Source of the DNA: Campylobacteraceae bacterium
Lineage (GTDB): Bacteria; Campylobacterota; Campylobacteria; Campylobacterales; Sulfurovaceae
Direction of reading: 5' to 3'
DNA: 64,000 nucleotides
NCBI GenBank assembly: GCA_027038295.1
Contig: JALVXD010000216.1
Location: 14,804 to 78,803, forward strand
A model generated the notes under the pieces. The model did no database searches. It was given only the letters and a program-made list of their open reading frames with translations, and had not been told where the DNA came from. Numbering within the stretch: position 1 is the stretch's first letter; each line of letters begins with the position of its first letter. The translations under genes were made by a program, and so were the position numbers. Positions 3,924 through 64,000 of the stretch are shown here, one piece after another.

Positions 3924-5324
3924 TTACTCTTTTCTATTCCATTTACGCTTTTTAAGCATCTCTCGTTTGGTATAAAATCTATTTTTAATTTGGTTTATTT
4001 TATTTTTCTCTTTCTCTTCAAGATTAGCAGTAATATTTTCTACCTCTTCTCCTATCTTCACTGAAAGCATTTCTGACTTTTTCATGGCTAAAATTTGGGA
4101 AGGGAAGATACTTCTGTGTCCTGAAATTAAAAAGCTAATAACAGCACCCAATGCTGCATAATGTGCAATATCTATACCAAAGAGTTCCACTGCCATAATG
4201 GTTGAAGCAATAGGAGTATTGGTTGTTGCAGAGAGTACACTGACAAAGCCCAGTGCTGAAAAAAGTATCAAATGTTCAGGTGAAACCAGTGTAGCAAAAG
4301 CATGTCCACTGGTCGCTCCAATGTAAAAAATTGGGGTAAGAATTCCACCACTACCTCCTGCCCCTAAAGAGATAGAGGTAAAAAGTGTTTTAAGTATAAA
4401 GGTATACCAATGAACATCTCCTACTAGAGTTGTATTGGGGGTAAGTACATTTTCAATTGTATCTAAACCAAGTCCTATATATTGCTCTCCAAATATGAGT
4501 GCGAGTACTACAACAATCAAACCTCCCAAAAAGGCTTTGATATAAATATTTAATTTAATGTTCTTAATTATTTTTGCAGTGAAAGAGACAGAAGTAATCA
4601 CCATGTCCGATACCATACCAAAAAAGAGTGCAGCCAAGACTACCTTCCCAATCAGTGACAAGTCAAGTGTAATATTTTGATAGAAATGAAGATTGTAATA
4701 GGTGTATTTAATTCCTAAAAGCTGTGCCGTTGTAAAAGCAGCAAAACCAGCAATAAAAGAGGGCAAAAGAACATCATATAAAATAACCCCAATAATAAGT
4801 ACCTCTACTCCAAAAATTGCTCCTGCAATAGGTGTACCAAAAACGGTTGCAAACCCTGCACTTATACCACAAATTACCAGTTTTTTTCGGTCTTGTTTGT
4901 TAAATTTAAATAGACTAGAAAGTGCAGAAGCCACCCCTGCACCTATCTGTGCACCTGGTCCCTCTTTTCCCACAGAAGCACCTGCAAAAATACTTACTAC
5001 CGTAGCCAAAAGTTTTACAGGAATTACCGAAATATCAATTTTGGCATTATCTCTATGTACTGCTGATATAACCTTCTCTGTACCATGCCCCTCTGCTGAG
5101 GGAGCAAATGTTCTAACAATCCAAACCGTAAGCACTAAGGCAAAAGGAAGGGTATAATAATAAGGAAAAGGTAAAAGAGAACGCGATGTTTCTGCATATT
5201 CTAAAATATCGAGGAAAGATGTCACCGTAGCACCAATGATAACACCAATCAGTGAAGAGAGAAATACCCATTTTGCTACACTAAAAAATATTGCTATTTG
5301 TTCTGTGAAATGTTTTTGTATCAT
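3924..5324 (-). CDS. ClC/EriC-family chloride channel protein
   Basis: Many TM helices; GKEGP gating-Glu motif, FGTPIAGAIFGVEV, GGSGGILTPIF, NTPIASTIMAVELFG. Confidence 0.9.
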   Translation of the reverse strand: MIQKHFTEQIAIFFSVAKWVFLSSLIGVIIGATVTSFLDILEYAETSRSLLPFPYYYTLPFALVLTVWIVRTFAPSAEGHGTEKVISAVHRDNAKIDISVIPVKLLATVVSIFAGASVGKEGPGAQIGAGVASALSSLFKFNKQDRKKLVICGISAGFATVFGTPIAGAIFGVEVLIIGVILYDVLLPSFIAGFAAFTTAQLLGIKYTYYNLHFYQNITLDLSLIGKVVLAALFFGMVSDMVITSVSFTAKIIKNIKLNIYIKAFLGGLIVVVLALIFGEQYIGLGLDTIENVLTPNTTLVGDVHWYTFILKTLFTSISLGAGGSGGILTPIFYIGATSGHAFATLVSPEHLILFSALGFVSVLSATTNTPIASTIMAVELFGIDIAHYAALGAVISFLISGHRSIFPSQILAMKKSEMLSVKIGEEVENITANLEEKEKNKINQIKNRFYTKREMLKKRKWNRKE

Positions 5325-18478: not shown

Positions 18479-19450
18479 ATGGGATTAGACAGTTTAGTTG
18501 GAGGTACCATCTGGGATGAGTACAGTAATAAAGTAGCAGATTTGATGAACAACCCAAAAAATATGGGTGAAATTACAACCGAAGAAGCAGAAGAGAAAGG
18601 TGGTAAACTTATTGTCGCAGATTTTGGTGCAGAATCTTGTGGAGATGCCGTTCGTTTATATTGGCTTGTTAACCCAAATACTGATGTGATTATGGACTCT
18701 AAATTTAAGAGTTTTGGATGTGGAACTGCTATTGCCTCTTCAGACACTATGGCAGAACTATGTAAGTTTAAAACTGTTCAAGAAGCTGTAAAAATAACCA
18801 ATATTGATGTTGAGAAAGCGATGAGAGATACACCAGATGTTCCATCGGTTCCACCTCAAAAAATGCACTGTTCAGTAATGGCATACGATGTTATCAAAAA
18901 AGCAGCTGCTCAATATATGAATGTGGATATGGAAAGTTTTGAAGAAGAAATCATCGTTTGTGAGTGTGCAAGAGTATCACTTAGTACATTGCAAGAAGTT
19001 ATTAGACTCAACGACCTTACCACGGTAGAACAGATAGCAGACTACACCAAAGCTGGTGCATTCTGTAAGTCATGTATTCGCCCTGGTGGACATGAAGCAA
19101 AAGACATCTACTTGGTTGACTTACTCGAAGAGTATGAAAAAGAAAAAATGGCTAAAACTGCTGACAGCCTAGCACAAGGTGGACCAGTAGACTTTGAGCA
19201 GATGACTGTAGTTCAAAAACTAAAGGTTGTAGACAAGGTCATTGATGACAATATCCGTCAGATGCTTATTATGGATGGTGGAGATATGGAGATTCTTGAT
19301 ATTAAAGAGAATGGTGAAAATATTGACATTTATATCAGATATTTAGGTGCATGTAATGGTTGTGCTTCTGCCGATACAGGAACACTTTTTGCCATTGAGA
19401 ACATACTTAAAGAGAAACTTTCTCAAAATATTAGAGTTTTACCGATATAA
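18479..19450 (+). CDS. nifU: NifU Fe-S cluster assembly scaffold
   Basis: N-terminal IscU-like domain (SCGDAV, FGCGTAIAS, KMHCSVM), central [2Fe-2S] domain (VCEC...GAFCKSC), C-terminal Nfu domain (GACNGC). Confidence 0.96.
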   Translation: MGLDSLVGGTIWDEYSNKVADLMNNPKNMGEITTEEAEEKGGKLIVADFGAESCGDAVRLYWLVNPNTDVIMDSKFKSFGCGTAIASSDTMAELCKFKTVQEAVKITNIDVEKAMRDTPDVPSVPPQKMHCSVMAYDVIKKAAAQYMNVDMESFEEEIIVCECARVSLSTLQEVIRLNDLTTVEQIADYTKAGAFCKSCIRPGGHEAKDIYLVDLLEEYEKEKMAKTADSLAQGGPVDFEQMTVVQKLKVVDKVIDDNIRQMLIMDGGDMEILDIKENGENIDIYIRYLGACNGCASADTGTLFAIENILKEKLSQNIRVLPI

Positions 19451-19534
19451 ACATATTTACAATTCATGGGTAGACACATTGGTCTACCCCTACATATTTT
19501 ATAAAAGATTGCTATAATGTAAAAAAGGCTTTTT

Positions 19535-51570: not shown

Positions 51571-52226
51571 TAGTGAAACCCACCTATCTTTTTCTGCGTA
51601 TGATTAAAGACATAGACCGACAAAAGCACCACAAAACTTATAAGCACCATAATAGCCGAATAGATATGAGCCGTACCATAATCCATTATCTCCACCATTT
51701 CATAAATGGCAATAGAAGCGACCTTAGTCTCATCAGGAATGCTCCCACCTATCATCAATACCACCCCAAACTCTCCAACCGTATGAGCAAAGGTAATAAT
51801 AAGAGCCGTAAGCAGAGCAGGTTTTATATTTGGCAGTGCCACTTTTAAAAGCGTGGTCAATCTACTTTTTCCACTCAAATAAGAAGCTTCTAGCATGTTT
51901 TTGTTCAACCCTTCAAACCCACCTTGCAAAGGCTGAACCATAAAAGGCAAAGAGTAAAAACAAGAGGCAATCACCAACCCCGTAAAACTAAAAGCCAAAT
52001 CGACCTTTGCAAAGAGTATCAAAATATAAAATCCCAAAACCGATGGAGGCAAAACAATAGGCAAAGCCGTAATAGCCTCTAAAAATGGCTTGGCTTTTGA
52101 TCTGCTTTGAGACAGATACCATGCCAAAGGTAGACTAATTATAAAAAGAATAAGCGTGGTTAATCCTGCCAGTTTAAAGGACAGTATGAACGGGGTTAGG
52201 TCTAGGGTTTTTAGGGTTTCTAGCAT
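51570..52226 (-). CDS. modB: molybdate ABC transporter permease
   Basis: [38 protein letters not shown]. Confidence 0.95.
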
Positions 52227-52266
52227 TTTAGTTTCCGTCCATTATCTTTTTGACTTTCAAAAACCC

Positions 52267-52360
52267 GTAGGGTGCTATTTTCCAACGCACCTTTAATTGG
52301 CATAAAGAAAAAATTTGTTTTTGATTTGAATAATTGGTGCGTTAGAAAACGGCACCCTAC
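52267..52360. repeat. REPIN-like element, family A (inverted pair of GTAG-GGTGC..GCACC REPs)
   Basis: gtagggtgctattttccaacgcacc (52267-52291, +) and gtagggtgccgttttctaacgcacc (52360-52336, -). Confidence 0.85.
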
Positions 52361-52368
52361 AAAAGCTC

Positions 52369-53025
52369 TCATACCAACCCCAACTCACAAGCCATATCTC
52401 TTTTCAATTTAGAAAATGGCTCTTTAGATAAATCTGCATTATCATCTATCAAAGAGAAAATATCTTGCTTTATTTGTTGATAGGGTATGCCTGTTAAATC
52501 TTGCAACTCTTTTAATCTACTTTCAGGGTAAAGCTCTGCATTTTTTATCATCTCAAGGACTATATCTTTGTGGGCTTGGTAGCGTTCGTTTAGTTTGAAA
52601 GTTTTTATATATTTTTCATATTCGTTTGAGTAGTTTTCTTTTAGAGGTATGTCGATGTCATCTTTTGATTTTATGTTTAGGTCTTTACAGTTTTTATGTA
52701 AAAAGAGTTTGAATTTTACTTTTTCATCAAATTGAAAAGATTTTAAATAAGGGTTGGTAGACTCCAACTCTTTATCTCCATAGAACGGTGTACTTCCTTT
52801 TATTTTAGAATTACAAACAGAACATGACGGAATCAAATTAAAAATAGAGAGTGCTAAATATGGGTAGCTTCCTTTATCAATAAAATGGTCTAATGTAAAT
52901 TTATTTTTACTATTCTCTTCTTCATCATACTCATCATGAAACGTACACTCAAATCTAGGCGAAAAATTAAACCCCTGCTTATGAATATTTTTATAATCTT
53001 CAACCCATAGATAGACAAGTTCCAT
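52369..53025 (-). pseudogene. chimeric remnant: AAA-ATPase N-terminus fused in frame to an HNH-nuclease C-terminal half (Septu PtuA/PtuB-like)
   Basis: aa 1-37 (MELVYLWVEDYKNIHKQGFNFSPRFE) resemble the first strands of ABC/AAA_21 defence ATPases but no Walker A follows. aa ~43 onward give LDHF...LALSIFNLIPSCSVCNSKIK (HNH) without the upstream CxxC. Confidence 0.68.
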
Positions 53026-53066
53026 ACTTTCCCTTTTTTCTTTATGAAGTTATTATATCAAAATTT

Positions 53067-53234
53067 GTAGGGTGCTGTTTTCCAACGCACCTTCAATTGG
53101 CATAAATAAAAAATCTCTTTTTAGGTTTAACTAATTGATGTGTTAAAAACAATACTCTTATATTTTTAAGCCTTTCGGCGAAACTTCTCTTTATGCCAAT
53201 TTCATTTAACGGTGCGTTGAAAACAGCACCCTAC
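53067..53234. repeat. REPIN-like element, family A, second locus
   Basis: gtagggtgctgttttccaacgcacc (53067-53091, +), a decayed inner arm near 53136-53160, and gtagggtgctgttttcaacgcacc (53234-53211, -); shares the inner aattggcataaa with the first locus. Confidence 0.85.
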
Positions 53235-53243
53235 AACATATTA

Positions 53244-53633
53244 TCACCCACAAACAAAAACCTCACTCCCCTTAATTAAAACCATGACATCATCACCCAC
53301 ACTTAACCCCATGCTTAACGTCGCTTCTACCGTCAGCAGACACTCCAAAGAAAATCTCTCTAACTCTACTTGAACAGAACTTAATAAATCACCCTTGTCA
53401 ATGGCTGTCACTTTGGCTGTTAACTGGTTGACAATGCTGAGTTCCCCTGTGAAGTTTTTAGCTAAAGAGATGTTGGTTGATTTCACGCTTAACTCTACAG
53501 TAGAGCCTATTTTAATGGTGTCTCGTAATTCTAAACTGACGACTTTTATACGTTGACAACCCAGTTTACAAGTGACAATGTGTAGCTTGTCATTTTTGTC
53601 AATCTTTTCTACTTTTACACTCAATTTGTTCAT
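53244..53633 (-). CDS. TOBE/Mop-domain molybdenum-binding protein
   Basis: Two TOBE units (MNKLSVKVEKI...VKST; IVNQLTAKVTAI...GDDVMVLIKGSEV); inside the mod operon. Confidence 0.88.
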   Translation of the reverse strand: MNKLSVKVEKIDKNDKLHIVTCKLGCQRIKVVSLELRDTIKIGSTVELSVKSTNISLAKNFTGELSIVNQLTAKVTAIDKGDLLSSVQVELERFSLECLLTVEATLSMGLSVGDDVMVLIKGSEVFVCG

Positions 53634-54373
53634 GGAATGATGTACCCGAACTCTTTAAATATCTGCTCTGCTTTTTTAGAAAAGATAAAAGCATAAAAGG
53701 CTAACGCCTCTGGCGACTTTTCACCTTGTTTTAAAATGACAATGCCTTGGTCTATAGGGGTGTAGAGTTTTGGGTCAACATCTGCCCAGTTTTTACCTTT
53801 TTTGAAGTGAGACATTTGAGGGCTAAAGAGAGAAGACTTTGCGATAAAACCTATGTCAGTAGCTTTGGTGGCGTAGGTTACGGTTTGAGAAATAGACTCA
53901 CCAAAGACAAATTTATTTTTTATATCATTATAGACTTTTGCATTTTCTAAAGCCTCTTTTGTCGCTATGCCATAAGGGGCTGTTTTAGGATTGGCGACGG
54001 CTATTTTTTTGACTTCATCACTTTTTAGTAACTCCATCACCTTTGTAAAGTCTCTTTTTTGTTTAGACAAATACGCCAATGAACCTTGGGCGTAAACCAA
54101 AGGTCTAGTTACTGCAAAATCTTCTTTGTAGAGTGTTTCGGGGTAAAGCATGTTTGCTCCCATGAAGATGTCGTAAGGGGCTCCATGTTTTATTTGAGCT
54201 GTGAGTTTCCCTGTGCTTCCTAAGATGACTTGCACTTTAGTGTCGGGGTAGAGTCGGTTAAACTCTTTTTTTAGGTCATTTATGGCGTAACTCACATTGG
54301 CTGCTACGGCTACTTTTATGGTTTTGGCTTGGGTAAATAGGGTTAATAACAGTGCTACTATTAAAAATTTCAT
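53630..54373 (-). CDS. modA: molybdate ABC transporter substrate-binding protein
   Basis: Signal peptide MKFLIVALLLTLFTQA, VAVAANVS, GSTGKL...GAPYDIF, ANPKTAPYG, GESISQ; start at the ATG at 54373. Confidence 0.95.
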   Translation of the reverse strand: MKFLIVALLLTLFTQAKTIKVAVAANVSYAINDLKKEFNRLYPDTKVQVILGSTGKLTAQIKHGAPYDIFMGANMLYPETLYKEDFAVTRPLVYAQGSLAYLSKQKRDFTKVMELLKSDEVKKIAVANPKTAPYGIATKEALENAKVYNDIKNKFVFGESISQTVTYATKATDIGFIAKSSLFSPQMSHFKKGKNWADVDPKLYTPIDQGIVILKQGEKSPEALAFYAFIFSKKAEQIFKEFGYIIP

Positions 54374-54383
54374 TTTTTTCCTT

Positions 54384-54490
54384 GTAGGTTTGACCATGTC
54401 AAACGTTAAATCTCACTTTAATCTAAATGGAGATTTGTTATTTTTTAATCTGCTATGCTTGGTTTTGACGTTTGACATGGTCAAACCTAC
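54384..54490. repeat. REPIN-like element, family B (GTAG-GTTTGAC-cat-GTCAAAC), copy 1
   Basis: REP at 54384-54404 (+) and 54490-54470 (-). Confidence 0.88.
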
Positions 54491-54635
54491 GATTTTCTTA
54501 CATATGTCTATAGATAAAAGTATAACGTTATATGGTTTAGAAAACAATACTATATCACCCTTATGCTATAATCACAGCAATAGATGCAAGATGTGAATAA
54601 ATCTCTTGCAACCCCAATAATGAAGAAGAAAAATA

Positions 54636-55577
54636 ATGAGAATCAACAAATATATCTCGCACAATACCAAGTATTCACGTCGTGAAGCAGACAAGCTTAT
54701 AGAAGCTGGAGAAGTTTTCGTGAATCGTAAAAAGATAGAAGATTTCGCCTACGACGTTCAAGAGGGCGATGAAGTCTCCATAAAAGGTCTTCACGTCAAA
54801 GAGCGAACAGAACTCACCATGATAGTCTTTAACAAACCAAAAGGGACACTGGTCACCCGTAAAGACGACCGTGGACGAACCACCATTTTTCACAAGCTCC
54901 CTGGGAAGTTTAGACACTTTATCCCTATTGGGCGTTTGGACTTTGCTTCTGAGGGGCTTCTACTTTTGACCGACTCGCCAAAAGTAGCAGAGGTTATGAT
55001 GCAAAGTGGGCTAGACCGTACCTACAACATTAAAATAGACAAAGCCTTTTCAAACGAAATGGAGGAGGCGATGCGTGAAGGTCTTATTTTGGACGATGCC
55101 CGTGCAGGTGGACATGAGAAGTCTAAAATTTATGGCATGGAGTTTGAGCCTTTTGTGCATTATGAAGTACGTAACGCAGGAGCAAACTTTACCAAGCTAC
55201 GTGTGACCATCGCAGAGGGTAAAAACCGTGAGCTTCGTCGTTTCTTTGGACACTTTGAAGCCAATGTACTTGACCTTAAAAGGGTAGAGTTTGGAGGGAT
55301 TCAGCTTAACAACTTACCAACAGGAAAAACACGTTTCTTTACGCGTCGTGAGTATGATGACCTACACAAGTACCTAAAAATGATACGCCAAGTAGAAGCA
55401 CAAGAGAAAAAAGAGGAAGAGGACAGAGTAAAAGCTGAACGCCTTCGTGAAAAAAGACAAAACCAAACAGAAGACCAAAGAAGACGTGCTGAATCGGCTG
55501 AGAAGAAGAGACTCAAAGAGATTAAGCAGAAAAACTCTAACAAAAACAACCCAAACAAAAAAAATAAGAAGTTCTAA
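54636..55577 (+). CDS. RsuA/RluB-family pseudouridine synthase with charged C-terminal tail
   Basis: S4 domain (MRINKYIS...SRREADKLI), FNKPKG, IGRLDFASEGLLLLTD, EGKNRELRR. Confidence 0.92.
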   Translation: MRINKYISHNTKYSRREADKLIEAGEVFVNRKKIEDFAYDVQEGDEVSIKGLHVKERTELTMIVFNKPKGTLVTRKDDRGRTTIFHKLPGKFRHFIPIGRLDFASEGLLLLTDSPKVAEVMMQSGLDRTYNIKIDKAFSNEMEEAMREGLILDDARAGGHEKSKIYGMEFEPFVHYEVRNAGANFTKLRVTIAEGKNRELRRFFGHFEANVLDLKRVEFGGIQLNNLPTGKTRFFTRREYDDLHKYLKMIRQVEAQEKKEEEDRVKAERLREKRQNQTEDQRRRAESAEKKRLKEIKQKNSNKNNPNKKNKKF

Positions 55578-56755
55578 TGTCTTTGGCTCTAAAGTACCGA
55601 CCGACCACGCTCGATGAGATTGTGGGGCAAGAGCATCTTTTAGAGCAAGGTCAAGTCTTGCGAACCCTTATAGAGAAGAAGAGTTTACTTCACTCTTTTT
55701 TTTATGGACCTCCAGGTTGTGGAAAAACTACTTTGGCAAGGGTCATAGCCAAAGAGTTACAAGCTCCCTTTTTTGAACTCAATGCCACCACACTTAAAGT
55801 AGAAGATTTACGAAAAATCTTTAAAAGCTATGCCAATGCTTTAGAGAAACCTCTAATATTTATAGATGAAGTGCATAGACTCTCTAAAAATCAACAAGAG
55901 GTTTTGCTTCCGTTTATGGAGAACAACTCGGCACTCATCATTGGGGCATCGACAGAAAACCCCTACTACTCCCTCACCTCTGCCATGCGTTCACGTTCTC
56001 ACCTCTTTGAGCTAAAGCATGTGAATAACTCTGCTCTGCATCAACAACTTGACAAAATAGTCGAAAAAGAAGTTATTCACATAGCACAAGATGCAAAAGA
56101 TTTTTTAGTTAGCTCCTCCTCTGGCGATGTTCGTGCCATGTTGAACCTTTTAGAAACTGCTGTGACTTTAGGCTCAGAGATAAGCTTAGAAAAACTAAAG
56201 TCCATTCGCCCCCATGCCCTACAAGCAGGTAGTTCTGAAGCCGACTCACACTACGACCTAGCCTCTGCGATGATAAAGTCCATACGTGGTTCAGACATCG
56301 ATGCCAGTGTTTACTACCTAGCACGTTTGGTTAATGGTGGAGAACCTGCTGAGTTTATAGCACGACGTTTGTGCATCTTAGCCAGTGAAGACATAGGCAA
56401 TGCCAACCCTCATGCTTTAAACCTAGCCTCTTCTACTTTAAATATAGTAAAGATGATTGGTTACCCTGAAGCTCGAATCTCTTTATCACAGTTGGTTATC
56501 TATTTGGCTTCTTCACCCAAGTCAAACTCTGCTTATATGGCGATAAACTCTGCACTTCAAGCCATACAAGCTGGAGAGATTCACCCCATACCTGCAAACA
56601 TAAAACATGACAAGGTTAATTACTTGTACCCACATAATTTTAACGGTTGGGTTGAACAGAGTTACATGAGTAAAAATATGAAGTTTTATGAGAGTTCTAA
56701 AATAGGATTTGAAAAGACGTTGGATGAGTGGATAAAGAAGATTAAAAACACGTAG
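55577..56755 (+). CDS. rarA: replication-associated recombination protein A
   Basis: RPTTLDEIVGQ, GPPGCGKTT, FIDEVHR, IKSIRGSD, ASEDIGNA. Confidence 0.95.
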   Translation: MSLALKYRPTTLDEIVGQEHLLEQGQVLRTLIEKKSLLHSFFYGPPGCGKTTLARVIAKELQAPFFELNATTLKVEDLRKIFKSYANALEKPLIFIDEVHRLSKNQQEVLLPFMENNSALIIGASTENPYYSLTSAMRSRSHLFELKHVNNSALHQQLDKIVEKEVIHIAQDAKDFLVSSSSGDVRAMLNLLETAVTLGSEISLEKLKSIRPHALQAGSSEADSHYDLASAMIKSIRGSDIDASVYYLARLVNGGEPAEFIARRLCILASEDIGNANPHALNLASSTLNIVKMIGYPEARISLSQLVIYLASSPKSNSAYMAINSALQAIQAGEIHPIPANIKHDKVNYLYPHNFNGWVEQSYMSKNMKFYESSKIGFEKTLDEWIKKIKNT

Positions 56756-56856
56756 GTGTGACCATGTCACACGCCAAAATGAATGGGGATAATTTCACAA
56801 TTGTTATCCCCATAAAGTAAAAACTGAGATTTGACGTTTGACATGGTCAAACCTAC
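56752..56856. repeat. REPIN-like element, family B, copy 2 (between convergent rarA and typA)
   Basis: GTAG-GTGTGAC-cat-GTCACAC at 56752-56772 (+) and GTAG-GTTTGAC-cat-GTCAAAC at 56856-56836 (-). Confidence 0.88.
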
Positions 56857-56865
56857 AGTATTGTT

Positions 56866-58683
56866 TTATTTACTATTTTTCTTGTCTCTAGCAGCTCTTT
56901 TACGTACAACTGGGTCAAGAGATTTTTTACGAATTCTTATAGATATAGGTGTAATCTCAATAAGCTCATCATCTTCAATCCACTCCATTGCAGAGTCAAG
57001 TGTAATCTCTCTAGGCTTAACAAGTTTAACAGCTTCATCTGTACCTGAAGTTCTCATGTTGGTCAATGCTTTCCCTTTAAGTGGGTTAACATCAAGGTCA
57101 CCAGGTCTTGCTGACTCACCAATAACCATTCCTGAGTAAACTTTTTCTTGTGCAGAAATAAACATAATACCACGTGCTTGAAGGTTAAAGATAGAGAAAG
57201 CAACGGCTTCACCATCATCCATAGAAACCAATGCTCCTGGAGTTCTTGATTCAACACTACCAGAGTATGCTCTGTATTCTAAGTAAGAGTGATTCATGAT
57301 ACCTTCACCTTTAGTGTCGGTAAGGAACTCATTTCTAAACCCAATAAGACCACGTGCAGGAATTTCAAACTCTAATCTTACTGTACCATCTGGCATTGGG
57401 TTAAGAGAAGTCATGTTCGCTTTTCTTTTTCCAAGTTTCTCAATAGCAACCCCTTGGAACTCTTCTGGAACATCAACAACTAAATGTTCAAATGGCTCCA
57501 TTTTAACACCATTCTCTTCTTTAGTTACAACTTCTGGACGAGCCAACATAAACTCGAAACCTTCACGTCTCATGTTTTCAGCCAAAATACCAATTTGAAG
57601 TTCACCCCTACCTGATACTTTAAATGAAGCATCATCCATTGGCTCCATTCTCATTGCGATGTTTGTCTCCATCTCTTTTTCAAGACGCTCTCTAATTTTA
57701 TTAGAAGTTACGTGTTTACCTTCTTGTCCAGCTAATGGTCCGTTATTTACAGACATAATAACTGAAAGTGTAGGCTCTTCAACGTGCATTGGGTCAAGTG
57801 CTACAGGATTTGATTTATCACAAACAGAATCTCCAACATCAATATCTGAAAAACCAGCGATGGCTACAATATCTCCTGCTTCTGCCTCTTCAATATCAAT
57901 TCTATCAAGACCTTTAAACCCAATAAGTTTAGAAACTCTTGATTTAGATTTAGAACCATCTGCTTTCACAAGTAGATACTCATCACCTTTTTTAATTTTA
58001 CCATTAAAAATACGTGTAATACCAATACGACCAACAAAGTTATCAGAGTCAAGTGTAAATACTTGTGCCTGAGTATCGTTATCTGGTGAACCTTTTGGGT
58101 AAGGAACATGTTCAATAATTGCATCAAAAAGAGGAACCATGTCTTTATTTTCATCTTCCATCTCATGTTTTGCATAACCATCTCTAGCTGCTGCATATAA
58201 AACAGGGAATTCAAGTTGATCTTCATTCGCATCGAGTGCAACCAGAAGGTCAAAAACTTCGTCCATAACTCTATCGGGGTCTGAACCTTCTTTATCAATT
58301 TTATTAATAACAACTACAGGAATAAGTCCAAAACCAATCGCTTTTTTCAAAACAAATTTGGTTTGAGGCATAACACCTTCTTGTGCATCTACAAGTAACA
58401 ATACGCCATCTACCATTTTAAGCACACGCTCAACTTCACCACCAAAATCGGCGTGACCAGGAGTGTCAATAATATTAATCTTATGGTCACCATAAGTAAT
58501 GGCTGTATTTTTAGAAAGAATGGTAATTCCTCTTTCCATTTCAATTTCGTTAGAGTCCATGGCTCTCTCTTGCACCTCTTCGTGTGCAGCGTAAGTTCCA
58601 GACTGTTGAAGAAGTTGGTCAACAAGCGTTGTTTTTCCGTGATCAACGTGAGCGATTACGGCGATATTTTTGATTTTTTGCAT
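56866..58683 (-). CDS. typA: translational GTPase TypA/BipA
   Basis: [45 protein letters not shown]. Confidence 0.98.
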
Positions 58684-58954
58684 TCGTAAGATTCCTATAC
58701 TATAAATAATTACGCGAATTATATCGAAAATATATTATAACTGGCTCTTTTTAAAAATTTAAGTTTAATTTATAACATTTCACTCACACTAAAAAATATT
58801 TTTTATATAAACTATGATTTACAATAAAAAACAAAATCAAACAAATATTAAATTTTTCTTAAATTTTAAATTAATTTATTAAGTTTTAAAGAGTTTCATA
58901 ACAAATTTTATGCTATAATCAATTATATTTTACTATATTAAGGAGATTTCGATT

Positions 58955-59620
58955 ATGAAATTAAAAAATTCGATTGTAGCAATTATTGCTTTGTCAAGTA
59001 TGAGTTTTGCTGGTGGAGATATTATAGAGCCAGTATTTGAACAAGAAACTGTAGAAGTTCCTGTAGAACCAGTAGTGGTTCCAGCACCAGCACCAGCACC
59101 TGCACCAGTTGTAAAAGCTGCACCTGTTGTAGTTGCACCTGTTGTAGCTGAAGCATTAGGTCTTTACATTGCTGGAGGTATCACAGATATCGCTGCAAGA
59201 GGTAACGATGATAGAGCTAACCTTTTCTCAGACGAAGATAACCAAGATAGACAACTCGGTTTCACAGGTAGATTAGGTTATGACTTTATGGATAACTTAG
59301 GTGCTGAATTAAGAGGTACTATTGGTGTTTCAGAAGAAAACAATGGAGTTGATAGCTTTCAACAAATTGGTGCTTACTTAAAGCCAAACTATGATGTTAC
59401 AGATACTCTTAACCTTTATGGTTTAGTTGGTGCTTCTAGTGCAAACCTTGCAAATCCAACAGATATGAGTAGTAGTGAAACTGGTCTATCTTATGGGTTA
59501 GGTTTAGACTACTCTGTATCTGATTCAATCTCTGTATTTACAGATGTTGTTAACTACATGAAAAAATCAGATACTAACTCTTTATGGGGTCTTACTGTTG
59601 GTGCTGGTTACCAATTCTAA
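58955..59620 (+). CDS. outer-membrane beta-barrel (OmpA-TM-like/porin family) protein with Pro/Ala/Val linker
   Basis: Signal peptide plus AGGDI, PAPAPAPAP linker, eight-stranded barrel pattern, terminal GAGYQF. Confidence 0.85.
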   Translation: MKLKNSIVAIIALSSMSFAGGDIIEPVFEQETVEVPVEPVVVPAPAPAPAPVVKAAPVVVAPVVAEALGLYIAGGITDIAARGNDDRANLFSDEDNQDRQLGFTGRLGYDFMDNLGAELRGTIGVSEENNGVDSFQQIGAYLKPNYDVTDTLNLYGLVGASSANLANPTDMSSSETGLSYGLGLDYSVSDSISVFTDVVNYMKKSDTNSLWGLTVGAGYQF

Positions 59621-59632
59621 GATTTTCTGAAA

Positions 59633-59666
59633 ATTACAACCTTTTTTAAAGGTTGTAATCTCTTTT
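59633..59666 (+). terminator. rho-independent terminator
   Basis: ATTACAACCT...AGGTTGTAAT hairpin followed by ctctttt. Confidence 0.7.
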
Positions 59667-59753
59667 CCTCTACTCTTATGCTAAAATATCTCTAAAAATT
59701 ATATAATAATTAAGTTTTTATATATATTTTAAAACTTATTGGGAGATACAGAT

Positions 59754-61367
59754 ATGAAATATTTACTACTACTTAGCATTATGCTATCAGCACTCTATTC
59801 AACACAATTAGATAATAGGCTAAATTCTATTATAAACAGTGACCCCTACCAACTTTCACAAAATAGTAGTGAAAGAAATATTATACGACAACTCTATAGC
59901 CTTAATCAAAATAAACCATTATGGATAGGACATGCTCGTAATCTTAATACATTAAGAGAAGCACTACAAGACCCTTATTTTAATTATAAATCTAAAGATT
60001 TACAGCAAAATAATATAGAACAATATACCTATCTTCTTAATGATAATATGGACTTAAACACCAATGCTAATGATTTGGCTACTCTTGATATTTTATTAAC
60101 TCGTGCCTATGTAGGTTTAGCAAATTTTATTGTACAGTCAGATACAAACTGGGATATGGTACAAGATAAAATTAAAGCTCTAAAAGAGTCAAAAGACATT
60201 ACAGCAAACTGGGAGATGGTACGCAAAACTTCACCATCTGCTTCAAGACTTTTTTCTGCTATTACCAGTGAAAATATTTATGATTTTTTCAAATCTATCA
60301 CAGCACTACCAAAACTTCATCAAGACCTAATAGAATCGTTACAGTTTTATAAAAGTCTTGGTAGTTTACCACGTATTAAATATGCTAAAGACCTAAGATT
60401 TGGAGATCAATATCCATACATATCTGATATTAAACAAAGACTTATTATGACGGGTGATTTAAGAAACAGAAATAACACTTCGGATATATTTGATAGGGAG
60501 TTACTAAATGCACTGCGTAGCTATAAAGATCGTTTTAAACTAACACAAAACAATACTATTGATAAAATTACTGTCTATTACATGAATAAACCAATGAGTG
60601 AACATGTTCAAAGTATTCTTACCAATTTAGATAAGTTAAAAGTATTCCCTGATAAATTTCCAAATGAGTACATTAGAGTAAATCTTGCAGATTTTACCAT
60701 GGACTATATCAGACATGGAGAATCAATTCTTCACATGAATGCTGTTGTAGGTAGAGATGTTAGACCAACACCTATCTTCTCTTCTTACATGAAATACCTT
60801 GTATTGAATCCAACTTGGAACATTCCTGATAACTTGGTTCGTAGAGATTTAATACCAGCACTACAAGAACATCCTGACTATTTAACTGAACATAATATTC
60901 ATGCATTTAAAGGATGGAAAAATAAGAAAGAGATTAAAAATTTTACGGTAGACAAACTATTACCATATAAAGATGGTGGTAGCATCCCTTACCGTTTTGT
61001 TCAGTATCCAGGGGATGATAATGCACTAGGACGTGTGAAGTTTATGTTCCCTAATAAATACTCTGTTTATCTACATGATACAGACAACAAATCACTCTTT
61101 TCACGTCGTTACCGTGTTTACAGCTCTGGTTGTATGCGTCTCGAGAAACCTTTTGAACTGCTAGAGGTATTAAAATCTCGTCTTAAAGCATCAGATGTTA
61201 GAAATATTGATAAGTATCGTAATACTCTAAAGACAGTAACATTAAATCTTACTAAGCCTCTACCTGTTCATACTACCTACTTTACAGTATTTAGACAAAA
61301 TGGTCTTACAAACTTTAGAAAAGATGTATATGAGTACGATAAATTTATTCAGACTTCTCAAAAATAA
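59754..61367 (+). CDS. L,D-transpeptidase (YcbB/LdtD-like) with scaffold and PG-binding domains
   Basis: NPTWNIP, FVQYPGDDNALGRVKFMFPN, VYLHDT, SSGCMRL; start at MKYLLL (59754). Confidence 0.92.
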   Translation: MKYLLLLSIMLSALYSTQLDNRLNSIINSDPYQLSQNSSERNIIRQLYSLNQNKPLWIGHARNLNTLREALQDPYFNYKSKDLQQNNIEQYTYLLNDNMDLNTNANDLATLDILLTRAYVGLANFIVQSDTNWDMVQDKIKALKESKDITANWEMVRKTSPSASRLFSAITSENIYDFFKSITALPKLHQDLIESLQFYKSLGSLPRIKYAKDLRFGDQYPYISDIKQRLIMTGDLRNRNNTSDIFDRELLNALRSYKDRFKLTQNNTIDKITVYYMNKPMSEHVQSILTNLDKLKVFPDKFPNEYIRVNLADFTMDYIRHGESILHMNAVVGRDVRPTPIFSSYMKYLVLNPTWNIPDNLVRRDLIPALQEHPDYLTEHNIHAFKGWKNKKEIKNFTVDKLLPYKDGGSIPYRFVQYPGDDNALGRVKFMFPNKYSVYLHDTDNKSLFSRRYRVYSSGCMRLEKPFELLEVLKSRLKASDVRNIDKYRNTLKTVTLNLTKPLPVHTTYFTVFRQNGLTNFRKDVYEYDKFIQTSQK

Positions 61368-61373
61368 TTAAAT

Positions 61374-61394
61374 GGTCGGTTACTCCGACCCTAT
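61374..61394 (-). repeat. solitary REP-like hairpin (ATAG-GGTCGG-agtaa-CCGACC) between convergent genes, probable bidirectional terminator
   Basis: 6-bp GC stem directly after the ruvC stop, preceded by an xTAG tetranucleotide as in the other REPs. Confidence 0.6.
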
Positions 61395-61873
61395 AAAACC
61401 CCTGAAAACTTAACCCTTTGAGCATGAGTAATGGCAATTGCCATTGCATCTGTGATATCCAAGGGTTTGATCTCCTTTTTTATCTTTAATAAACGTTTCA
61501 CCATAAAGGCAACCTGTTCTTTTGTTGCCTTACCGTTACCTGTAATCGCTTTTTTTACCTGTAAGGGAGTATATTCTGAATAATTTCCAACAGATAAAAG
61601 TATTTTAAAACTTAAAGCTCCACGAAACTGTGCTAACTTAAGAACAGTCTTAGGATTATGAGCATAAAATATATCCTCTATCGCAACTTCATCAATCTTA
61701 TGAGCATCGAATATAGCGTCAATACCTGCACTCATTTCTAAAATTTGCTCTTTTAATATATTTTTTTTAAATTTAAGTATTCCTGCTTCTACAAGTCTAT
61801 ACTTTTCACTACTTAAATCAAGTATGCAATAGCCTAAAATACGAGTCCCTGGGTCAATTCCTAAAATTTTCAT
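61391..61873 (-). CDS. ruvC: crossover junction endodeoxyribonuclease RuvC
   Basis: [47 protein letters not shown]. Confidence 0.97.
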
Positions 61874-61968
61874 TCACACCTTTATTCACAGTGTGAATAT
61901 CTTTATCACACCTTCTTTTAAACCTATATTTTAGCCAATTTTAGCTAATATTCAAATAGTTATTCACA
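61870..61968. other. oriC1 (DnaA-box cluster upstream of dnaA)
   Basis: TCATTCACA 61870-78, TTATTCACA 61882-90, TGTGAATAT 61892-900, TTTATCACA 61902-10, TTATTCACA 61960-68; ruvC-dnaA intergenic position typical of Campylobacterota bipartite origins. Confidence 0.85.
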
Positions 61969-61986
61969 TTAAGATTAAGGAGCTTT

Positions 61987-63324
61987 ATGAACATTGGAAA
62001 TAAAGTACTGAAAAAACTTCAACAAGAGATAAGTAATAAGGCTTGGACACGATATATTAAAAATTTAAGTTATGATGAATCAGCTTCAAGATCAAATGTA
62101 GCACAATTTTATGCCCCCAACATACTTCTTGCTAAATGGATTAAAACCAAATATCAAAATAAAATTGCACATCTATTTGAAATAGAGAATAATTTACGTC
62201 ATAATGTTATTATCTCGGTAGGAAAAGTCAAAAAAACAGCGTCAAGTAGTCAAAAAGTTCAAACCAACTGTGAACAAAAAAATCAAACAAGAAGTACCAT
62301 ACTAAACCCATCATTCACTTTTGATAGTTTTATTGTAGGAGGTTCCAACCAATTTGCTTACACCACAGCAAAATCAGTAGCAGAGAAACCTGGTGCCTTA
62401 TATAATCCTCTTTTCCTTTATGGTGGTGTTGGTCTAGGAAAAACTCACCTTATTCAAGCCATAGGAAACCATCAAATAGCTGCAGGAAAGAAAGTTATAT
62501 ATACAACGTTTGAACAATTTATGAACAAGTTCACCTCTCATTTACGTTCTCAAACCATGGACAGATTTCGTGACCATTTTAGAGAATGTGATGTACTACT
62601 CATAGATGATATTCAGTTTCTTAGCCGAAAAGAGCAAACCCAAGAGGAGTTCTTTCACACCTTCAACGAACTGCATCAAGCAAAAAAACAGATTGTCATC
62701 ACATCAGATAGACAACCCAGTAAAATAGCTGGACTAGTAGATAGATTGCGAAGTAGATTTGAATGGGGTCTCATGGCTGATATTCAACCCCCTGGACTTG
62801 AAACAAAAATTGCCATTATTCAAAAGAAGTGTGAAATAGATGGTATCACACTCAATCAAGATATTATTAACTTCATTGCTTCAAATATGGGTAACAATAT
62901 ACGTGAAATAGAAGGTGTAATTATAAAACTTAATGCTTATTCAGGACTAATGAACCAAAAACTCACATTAGAATTTGCACAAAATGTGATTAAAGACCAA
63001 CTTACTGAAAAACAAGCCAATATTACTATTGATGACATTGTTAAACATATCTCAAAAGAACTCAATGTCAAACTATCTGATATAAAATCTAAAAAAAGAA
63101 CCAAAGATGTGGTTAATGCACGACGTATTTCCATCTATCTTACAAGAAAACTTACACCCCACTCCATGCCACAAATCGCTGTATATTTTGGAATGAAAGA
63201 CCATACTGCTGTCAGTCATGCCATGAAAAAAATCAATGAAACCATAAATGAAAATGAAAACTTTAAAGTCTTATTAGAAGAATTTGCAAATAATATAAAT
63301 GAAAACTCTGCAAAAAGTGATTAA
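61987..63324 (+). CDS. dnaA: chromosomal replication initiator DnaA
   Basis: YNPLFLYGGVGLGKTHL, LLIDDIQF, RLRSRFEWG, NIREIEG, KDHTAVSHA. Confidence 0.98.
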   Translation: MNIGNKVLKKLQQEISNKAWTRYIKNLSYDESASRSNVAQFYAPNILLAKWIKTKYQNKIAHLFEIENNLRHNVIISVGKVKKTASSSQKVQTNCEQKNQTRSTILNPSFTFDSFIVGGSNQFAYTTAKSVAEKPGALYNPLFLYGGVGLGKTHLIQAIGNHQIAAGKKVIYTTFEQFMNKFTSHLRSQTMDRFRDHFRECDVLLIDDIQFLSRKEQTQEEFFHTFNELHQAKKQIVITSDRQPSKIAGLVDRLRSRFEWGLMADIQPPGLETKIAIIQKKCEIDGITLNQDIINFIASNMGNNIREIEGVIIKLNAYSGLMNQKLTLEFAQNVIKDQLTEKQANITIDDIVKHISKELNVKLSDIKSKKRTKDVVNARRISIYLTRKLTPHSMPQIAVYFGMKDHTAVSHAMKKINETINENENFKVLLEEFANNINENSAKSD

Positions 63325-63512
63325 TTTTACTAAAGATATACTAAAAAAAGATATAATACAAAAAGTGAAAATATGTGAAAAAGTTAAAAGTTAAAAGTTA
63401 AAAGAGAATGCTCAAATCATTAGCTTTAAAATAGTTTTTCACATTTTCAACAAGAACTACTACTACCACTACTTATTTAAGTAAATATAGAGTAAAAAAA
63501 TAGGGAGATAAA
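63325..63512. other. oriC2 / DNA-unwinding region between dnaA and dnaN
   Basis: DnaA boxes TGTGAAAAA (63374-82) and TTTTTCACA (63435-43); (ACT)n run 63456-63473, i.e. TAG trinucleotide DnaA-trios on the lower strand; AT-rich flank. Confidence 0.82.
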
Positions 63513-64000
63513 ATGAAAATTCGTGTTACAAAACCACTTATAGAATCTATACTAATTAATTTGCAACCTTTTTTAGAGAAAAAAGATGCAAGTCAAATTA
63601 CTTCTCATATCTATTTTAAAGCTCAAAATGACAGTTGTACAATAAAAGCAACTGATGGAGAGATAGGATTAGTTATAAAAAGCAATAATATAATTATTGA
63701 AGAAGAAGGTGCTTTCACTGCAAATGGAAAAAATCTTTTAGATTATATAAGAATGTTAAATGATGAAATTATTTTAGAAGTAGTTGAAAACAATTTAATT
63801 ATAAAGCAAAATAGAACCAAGTATAAACTCCCGACTTTTAATTTTAATAATTTTCCAACATTTCCTGTAATTGAAGATAAACCTAAAATATTTTTAGATT
63901 CTATAAATCTTATTCAAGGATTTAGAAAAATATCATCAGCCATTGATAATAACAATCCAAAATTTGAACTAAATGGAGCACTTTTAGATATTAAGAGCAC
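63513..64000 (+). CDS. dnaN: DNA polymerase III beta sliding clamp (partial, runs off the window)
   Basis: My translation MKIRVTKPLIESILINLQPFLEKKDASQITSHIY...IKATDGEIG...FPTFP...NNPKFELNGALL; GGGAG RBS; position after dnaA. Absent from the ORF track because it is truncated. Confidence 0.95.
   Translation, partial: MKIRVTKPLIESILINLQPFLEKKDASQITSHIYFKAQNDSCTIKATDGEIGLVIKSNNIIIEEEGAFTANGKNLLDYIRMLNDEIILEVVENNLIIKQNRTKYKLPTFNFNNFPTFPVIEDKPKIFLDSINLIQGFRKISSAIDNNNPKFELNGALLDIKS

Follow-up and report, generated by a model that had tools for sequence, protein, structure and literature searches.

Two families of GTAG repeat doublets in a Sulfurovaceae genome and the RAYT genes linked to them

Introduction

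What are eight short hairpins, each led by the tetranucleotide GTAG, and how did they come to lie together between positions 52267 and 56856 of one stretch of bacterial DNA? The stretch, referred to here as the window, comprises 64,000 nucleotides of a Campylobacteraceae bacterium of the Sulfurovaceae lineage (assembly GCA_027038295.1, contig JALVXD010000216.1, positions 14,804 to 78,803), and its hairpins recall the repetitive extragenic palindromes (REPs) that form inverted doublets, or REP doublets forming hairpins (REPINs), and are linked to REP-associated tyrosine transposases (RAYTs). Nearly all work on REPIN-RAYT systems has concerned Gammaproteobacteria.

The evidence presented here makes it very probable that the two families at this locus, A and B, are REPs arranged as REPINs, a form of non-autonomous mobile DNA, and that each is the cognate substrate of its own RAYT. 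Both are repeat families whose units end at outer GTAG tags, the local hairpin is under constraint, insertions are polymorphic at orthologous sites, and each family is physically linked to its own type of RAYT gene, that of family A occurring in the same metagenome-assembled genome (MAG) as the locus. By analogy with Escherichia coli TnpA-REP, the RAYT would be an HUH/Y1 enzyme acting on REPs in single-stranded DNA (ssDNA), where it would bind the folded REP hairpin, read the 5' GTAG tag, and then cleave and rejoin the strand; REP doublets would thereby be excised or copied and re-inserted in intergenic DNA. RAYTs thus presumably move these repeats via ssDNA, and either population may still be active in this genome.

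Hairpin units and doublets in the window

The initial annotation described eight units of two GTAG families, all of which are present where they had been placed, and which pair into four inverted doublets. The REP-A motif is GTAGGGTGC-n-GTT-loop-AAC-GCACC (GTAG-GGTGC-n-GTT-loop-AAC-GCACC) and folds into an 8-bp stem with a one-base bulge, and the REP-B motif is GTAGG-TTTGAC-CAT-GTCAAA-CG (GTAG-GTTTGAC-CAT-GTCAAAC-G).

52267–52360, REPIN-A1, a 94-bp inverted doublet between the modB start and the stop of orf218 (nhmmer E = 3e-19); REP-A copies at 52267–52291 (+) and 52336–52360 (−)
53067–53234, REPIN-A2, a 168-bp doublet between the orf218 start and the TOBE stop (nhmmer E = 3e-22); REP-A copies at 53067–53091 (+) and 53211–53234 (−)
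54384–54490, REPIN-B1, a 107-bp doublet in the divergent modA/rluB promoter region, both REPs of the GTTTGAC/GTCAAAC subtype; REP-B copies at 54384–54405 (+) and 54469–54490 (−)
56752–56856, REPIN-B2, a 105-bp chimeric doublet between the convergent genes rarA and typA; REP-B copies at 56752–56773 (+, GTGTGAC/GTCACAC) and 56835–56856 (−)

Neither motif has a match in dinucleotide shuffles of the window, and none is expected by chance. Profile hidden Markov models (HMMs) built from the REPINs of relatives recover exactly these four doublets in the window, with no further match. Every one of the eight units starts with GTAGG followed by a hairpin, and the units fold as ssDNA at −3.8 to −6.3 kcal/mol (z = −2.3 to −4.0).

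The folds of whole doublets are stronger, reaching −22.1 kcal/mol (z = −5.8) for REPIN-A1, whose spacer is shorter than the family norm (a 137–138-bp unit), and −28.6 kcal/mol (z = −10.4) for REPIN-B1, which has arms that are 96% complementary and sits immediately upstream of the modA ribosome-binding site. REPIN-A2 encloses a degenerate fifth REP-A at about 53137–53160, and a sister species (L226) has the same 168-bp version in the orthologous place. In REPIN-B2 the left REP has the stem GTGTGAC/GTCACAC and the right REP the stem GTTTGAC/GTCAAAC. A structured RNA of the Rfam collection was also considered and set aside, there being only two sub-threshold long-hairpin matches, at 24–27 bits against gathering scores of 100–130.

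Dispersal, unit length and boundaries

Both motifs are dispersed far beyond the window, so that the first check proposed in the initial annotation came out in its favour. In a scan of genome contigs with two variable stem positions left free, the family B 21-mer matched at least 95 stretches; these come from 35 assemblies, almost all of them MAGs labelled Sulfurovum, Sulfurovaceae or Campylobacterota. Contig L036, from the MAG JALUMR, is 97.3% identical to window positions 56822–63785, which makes JALUMR the representative of the window's species among the collected genomes; this MAG has at least six family B sites. A further family B copy lies 2.3 kb past the window end (L001:20741). The family A motif was found in at least 120 vent-metagenome stretches of the Joint Genome Institute (JGI), with 195 REPs among the matches listed. 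The locus itself recurs in identical form on contig JALWLC010000224.1 of MAG GCA_027081135.1 and in hydrothermal-vent metagenome assemblies, and its database neighbours are labelled Sulfurovum or Sulfurovaceae.

The doublets behave as units of fixed length with defined ends. The REPIN-B unit is 107 bp long in 21 of 48 doublets and the REPIN-A unit 137–138 bp in 21 of 46, and in both families the modal length is held across unrelated loci. When contigs from four vent metagenomes were aligned on the region, depth rose 3- to 17-fold in exactly the bins that bear REPs, and many unrelated continuations began at 52265, 54490 and 56857, that is, at the outer GTAG ends. Joints in these alignments (e.g. 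52361–53067) were not used as empty-site evidence, since they are better read as other REPIN copies that fit both REPs.

A few family B contigs (L013, L087, L016/L018) are binned as Patescibacteria, Flavobacteriaceae or "bacterium"; these are probably mis-binned Sulfurovum contigs rather than signs of horizontal spread. The first bases of L036, the contig that represents the species, already lie within the right REP of REPIN-B2 (L036:1–35 corresponds to window 56822–56856), and most RAYT homologues lie on contigs of 3 kb or less. REPs evidently fragment short-read metagenome assemblies, and this fragmentation may cost bins their RAYT genes.

RAYT genes linked to each family

The 64-kb window contains no RAYT gene, in agreement with the initial annotation, which had proposed looking elsewhere for RAYTs flanked by the same REPs. 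Such genes were found for both families. A motif screen of family B loci gave four open reading frames (ORFs) of about 150–175 aa directly beside family B REPs, and these cognate genes, termed RAYT-B, are present in relatives of the window's genome.

L008:2358–2876, RAYT-B gene adjoining family B REPs
L064:1278–1811, RAYT-B gene adjoining family B REPs
L075:1748–2203, RAYT-B gene adjoining family B REPs
L030:6808–7245, RAYT-B gene adjoining family B REPs

Their proteins score 137–153 bits on the NCBIfam model NF047646 (REP_Tyr_transpos, REP-associated tyrosine transposase; cutoff 80) and match Pfam Y1_Tnp at E values of about 1e-10 to 1e-11. In L008, REP doublets stand on either side of the gene, the 3' end of which extends into a REP.

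A second type, RAYT-A, was found in family A loci with an HMM built from the RAYT-B proteins. Family A doublets stand on either side of the RAYT-A gene in L190, L214 and L135, where they are 137 bp long, and also in L218. The two types are 57–62% identical to each other, and the HUH motif (PDHxH), WQKRFYE and YIxNNP are invariant. The alignment of one RAYT-A variant (P0016) to E. coli TnpA-REP (4ER8) spans the full length, with E = 6e-20. The gene for P0016 lies between family A REPs on JALWLC010000101.1, a contig of GCA_027081135.1, and the same MAG carries the window locus (JALWLC010000224.1). Judged by their HUH, tyrosine and RAYT motifs, the proteins linked to families A and B are predicted to be RAYTs and not IS200 transposases.

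This assignment bears on the idea that the repeats are the ends of autonomous insertion sequences (IS) of the IS200/IS605 type, or else phage-borne repeats. The match of the associated proteins to Pfam Y1_Tnp, an IS200-like family, is what such an origin would lead one to expect, but the same proteins reach only 35–39 bits on the IS200 model NF033573 (cutoff 55) against 137–153 on the RAYT model, the four doublets of the window carry no transposase gene, and among 2.9 million viral contigs family B was matched once and family A not at all, all of which leaves this origin extremely improbable.

Several RAYT-B 3' ends (L008:2820–2876, L064 and P0040) enter a family B REP, which gives a REP-encoded C-terminal extension (for instance ...KKCVTRSHLR), and the end of the L008 contig shows an apparent tandem repeat of the REPIN-RAYT unit. 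On JALWLC010000101.1, the outer REPs of both RAYT-A-flanking doublets (L221:4020–4180 and 4700–4870) have the same loop insertion of about 24 nt (TATTGTAATGTATCCCTGTGGGAC), which is inverted between the two sides of RAYT-A and was not seen in the other family A copies examined.

Presence and absence at orthologous sites

The comparison with relatives that the initial annotation proposed shows that the sites vary at modA/rluB, rarA/typA and TOBE/modB. The relatives compared were the orthologous loci L225–L228, whose RarA proteins are 86–96% identical to that of the window. At modA/rluB, where the window has REPIN-B1, the site is cleanly empty in L225, L226 and L227. REPIN-B2 is absent from rarA/typA in all four relatives (L225, L226, L227 and L228). 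At TOBE/modB, the genes are adjacent in L227 and L150, and window positions 52267–53234 form a 968-bp insertion into a 39-bp spacer of the molybdate operon, bounded on either side by the outward-facing GTAG terminus of a family A doublet. Both REPIN-B insertions are specific to this species in comparison with sister species whose RarA is 95–96% identical, and family B was therefore mobile after the species split.

Within the species, for which the window was compared with the conspecific contig L001, the four REPINs are all fixed. The two sequences differ over 8.5 kb only by A/G at 52277, which lies in a REP stem of REPIN-A1; the window base breaks the inner GTT/AAC stem of REP-A.

Three relatives carry other hairpins at rarA/typA. 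In L225 (GTAGGTTCGGT..ACCGAAT) and L228 (GTAGGTTCGAT..ATCGAAC) this is another small GTAG...CTAC hairpin, with a compensated stem difference, and in L227 it is a doublet of another type. The repeated occupation of this site hints at a secondary host function or at preferred targeting of the site.

The same observations can be set within an account in which the hairpins are host-selected elements, such as terminators, mRNA-stabilising 3' hairpins or protein-binding sites, and RAYTs have no share in spreading them. The genes that flank REPIN-B2 are convergent, which together with the other GTAG hairpins of the three relatives suggests that some hairpin is favoured there, and REPs elsewhere stabilise mRNA and terminate transcription (PMC6006769). 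This account is nonetheless very unlikely to explain the repeats, because they are dispersed, keep a fixed unit length with GTAG boundaries and flank RAYT genes, and because REPIN-B1 occupies a divergent promoter region and both family A doublets are within an operon. Intrinsic (Rho-independent) terminators were rejected specifically: none of the seven terminator-like hits in 52000–57200 overlaps a REP, T-tracts are lacking after every REP stem, and two of the four doublets lie away from 3' ends. A secondary host role at 3' ends is possible and would be compatible with REPINs mobilised by RAYTs.

Constraint on the REP stem

The initial annotation read the GTGTGAC/GTCACAC stem at 56752 as a compensatory double substitution that points to selection on the hairpin. 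Clade-wide covariation upholds the hairpin constraint, but not the derived status of this copy, as 105 of 126 matches at family B loci have GTGTGAC...GTCACAC, 17 have GTTTGAC...GTCAAAC and four are non-complementary. The copy at 56752 carries the clade consensus and is neither a derived variant nor an in-place double mutant, the other three family B copies of the window belong to the minority subtype GTTTGAC/GTCAAAC, and REPIN-B2 is a chimera of the two stem subtypes. Further compensated stem types are GTGCGAC/GTCGCAC and GTGAGAC/GTCTCAC.

Covariation was assessed in 44 REPIN-B copies, none of which had been chosen for pairing at the variable positions. For the local REP hairpins, 22 compensated cells were observed against 3.9 ± 1.6 in shuffles, with none of 500 shuffles reaching 22; each of the four variable stem pairs shows changes in both of its members, and pairing is kept in 99.2% of cells. 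As the subtypes have spread by copying, these cell counts overstate the number of independent events, and at least three distinct compensated stem types are represented. The long arm-to-arm hairpin of the whole REPIN was considered as an alternative selected structure and is less supported, with eight compensated cells (1.8 ± 1.2 in shuffles), 98.3% of cells paired, and wobbles or mismatches where the arms are of different subtypes. These data support a constraint acting on the single REP hairpin.

Weighing mobility against decay

Several points weigh against the proposal that families A and B are REPINs each served by its own RAYT. The abundance of family A was obtained from metagenome contigs only 68–83% identical in nucleotide sequence to the window, which belong to related species, and the copy numbers in the window's own genome are lower bounds. 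The link of RAYT-A to this genome depends on the MAG binning of a 5.7-kb contig, and a limited search found no RAYT-B in the window's own species. Very recent activity is not supported, as the window REPINs are non-identical: the similarity between REPIN-B1 and REPIN-B2 is about 85%, and the lengths of the family A doublets are atypical.

An exact look-up of one RAYT-B protein (P0176) led to a different species (GCA_027040565.1), the protein-cluster listings being almost without accessions, and alignment of the L075 gene on metagenome runs X1 and X2 gave only 50–115-bp patches with about 10–20% mismatches, from assorted community RAYTs. The wider RAYT homologue family numbers 6565 proteins (E ≤ 1e-20), the majority of them encoded on short contigs.

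It is possible, although the less probable case, that family B is here a relic, with RAYT-B lost from the species, its copies decaying as fossils, and only family A retaining an enzyme. Three attempts to recover RAYT-B for the species failed, the similarity of only about 85% between the two family B doublets would fit decay, and the two arms of the chimeric REPIN-B2 are mismatched. Opposed to this are the species-specific insertions of both family B doublets described above, which place movement after the split from the sister species. Moreover, RAYTs lie on short repeat-flanked contigs that are often lost in MAG assembly or binning, so that the absence of RAYT-B from a limited search is weak evidence.

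The slot between the family A doublets

The two family A doublets enclose an ORF, in the position that the RAYT gene occupies in a REPtron (a RAYT gene bracketed by REPs).

52369–53025 (−), orf218, between the two family A REPINs

Being REP-bracketed like a RAYT gene, orf218 was considered as the missing RAYT and rejected; it has no HUH or tyrosine motifs, and its one Pfam match is a weak one to HNH (E = 0.003). Residues 1–36 are 97% identical to the N-terminus of a 610-aa ATPase in L230, and residues 27–218 are 74% identical to residues 134–322 of the 322-aa HNH protein of the same locus, and orf218 is the collapsed fusion remnant of a two-gene ATPase and HNH (Septu-like) cassette.

TOBE/modB occurs in four states: empty (L227, L150), with the intact ATPase and HNH cassette (L230:6001–8788), with the collapsed remnant (the window), and with an unrelated 417-aa ATPase between family A REPs (L191:5227–6477). 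The junction between the 3' end of the HNH gene and REPIN-A (8–11 bp) recurs in at least three genomic contexts (cf. L098:825–4032 and L172:263–1207). It is conceivable, though unlikely, that family A REPINs mark exchangeable cargo slots, either mobilising defence cassettes or giving portable homology for swaps; if so, a cargo-slot role for REPIN pairs would go beyond self-propagation.

Gene calls and other features of the window

The repeats intrude on the calling of neighbouring genes. The rarA stop codon is the TAG within the GTAG tag of the REP at 56752 (window 56752–56755), and in L225 (5683–5685) the rarA stop is likewise provided by a different GTAG hairpin, RarA being two residues longer (394 against 392 aa). 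In window 54371–54397, the ATG used for modA by ORF callers (54397–54395, giving 255 aa) is the CAT loop of the REP at 54384 read on the opposite strand. In relatives without REPIN-B1 modA is called at 247 aa, and the true start is probably at 54373, preceded by AAGGAA.

One further hairpin of the same kind, outside families A and B, is present in the window.

19463–19493 (−), single GTAG-led hairpin with a third type of sequence, GTAGGGGTAGAC-caatgt-GTCTACCC

It lies just past the stop of the gene at 18479–19450 and folds as ssDNA at −7.0 kcal/mol. The similar types GTAGGGTGTAGAC and GTAGGGTGTTGTC occur at loci of the relatives and resemble the REP published for Sulfurovum sp. NBC37-1.

The dnaA gene (window 61987–63324) is about 5 kb from the REPIN cluster and dnaN lies just past the window end, and since these genes are close by, all four REPINs of the 64-kb window are near the likely replication origin.

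Discussion

The suggestion in the initial annotation that RAYT-driven REPINs exist in this lineage is supported, but they are less new there than it took them to be. GTAG repeats have been reported in all proteobacterial divisions including epsilon (Di Nocera et al. 2013, PMC3733652), a study that lists Sulfurovum sp. NBC37-1 with both GTAG and CGTC repeats as well as tyrosine transposases, and the RAYT-associated REP of NBC37-1 is GTAGGGTGTTGTACCCCTACAACACC (Charnavets et al. 2015, PMC4690160). That repeat comes from the same genus-level lineage and shares the 5' GTAG(G) tag, the palindrome and the RAYT association. It has a 9-bp stem and a CCCC loop, and families A (GGTGC-n-GTT..AAC-GCACC) and B (GTGTGAC-CAT-GTCACAC) differ from it in sequence. 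No paper focused on REPIN-RAYT systems of Campylobacterota was found. Families A and B are well supported as new sequence families within a class of element that had been described before, also from this genus.

The organisation follows the established pattern, in which a genome has several REP families, each with a single RAYT whose gene is bracketed by REPs as a REPtron (PMC6006769). The REPIN-RAYT system of Pseudomonas fluorescens SBW25 (Bertels and Rainey 2011, PMC3116915) likewise has fixed-length inverted REP doublets as the replicating unit and several REPIN families per genome, every one of which has a separate RAYT with REPs of that family on its flanks. It belongs to another host phylum, whereas here both repeats and genome are AT-rich (34.5% GC) and covariation favours the short local REP hairpin over the long arm-to-arm REPIN hairpin.

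With the REPs, or bacterial interspersed mosaic elements (BIMEs), and TnpA-REP of E. coli (REPtron; 4ER8, Messing et al. 2012, PMC3479197), the system shares a full-length RAYT alignment in which HUH and the catalytic tyrosine are kept, a gene bracketed by REP pairs, and GTAG at the hairpin foot. E. coli REPs have long, bulged, GC-rich stems, in contrast to the 7–8-bp stems and 3–4-nt loops of the Sulfurovum REPs. The rarA/typA hairpins of L225 and L228 match the "double foot" REPs (GTAG...CTAC) of Quentin et al. (2018, PMC6006769); these double-foot-like hairpins occur in the relatives and not in the window, and their stem sequence is different.

The known picture of what REPs are is unchanged by these findings. 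For metagenomics, they mean that such repeats break contigs, and for annotation that REPs distort gene calls, as with the false modA ATG and the rarA stop codon. What is added is two co-resident families with their own RAYT types across many uncultured vent Sulfurovum genomes, together with empty-site comparisons and stem covariation, which offers the repeat field an AT-rich test case from outside the Gammaproteobacteria. The related pair of enzymes, with different hairpins and a shared GTAGG tag, is useful for the question of RAYT specificity.

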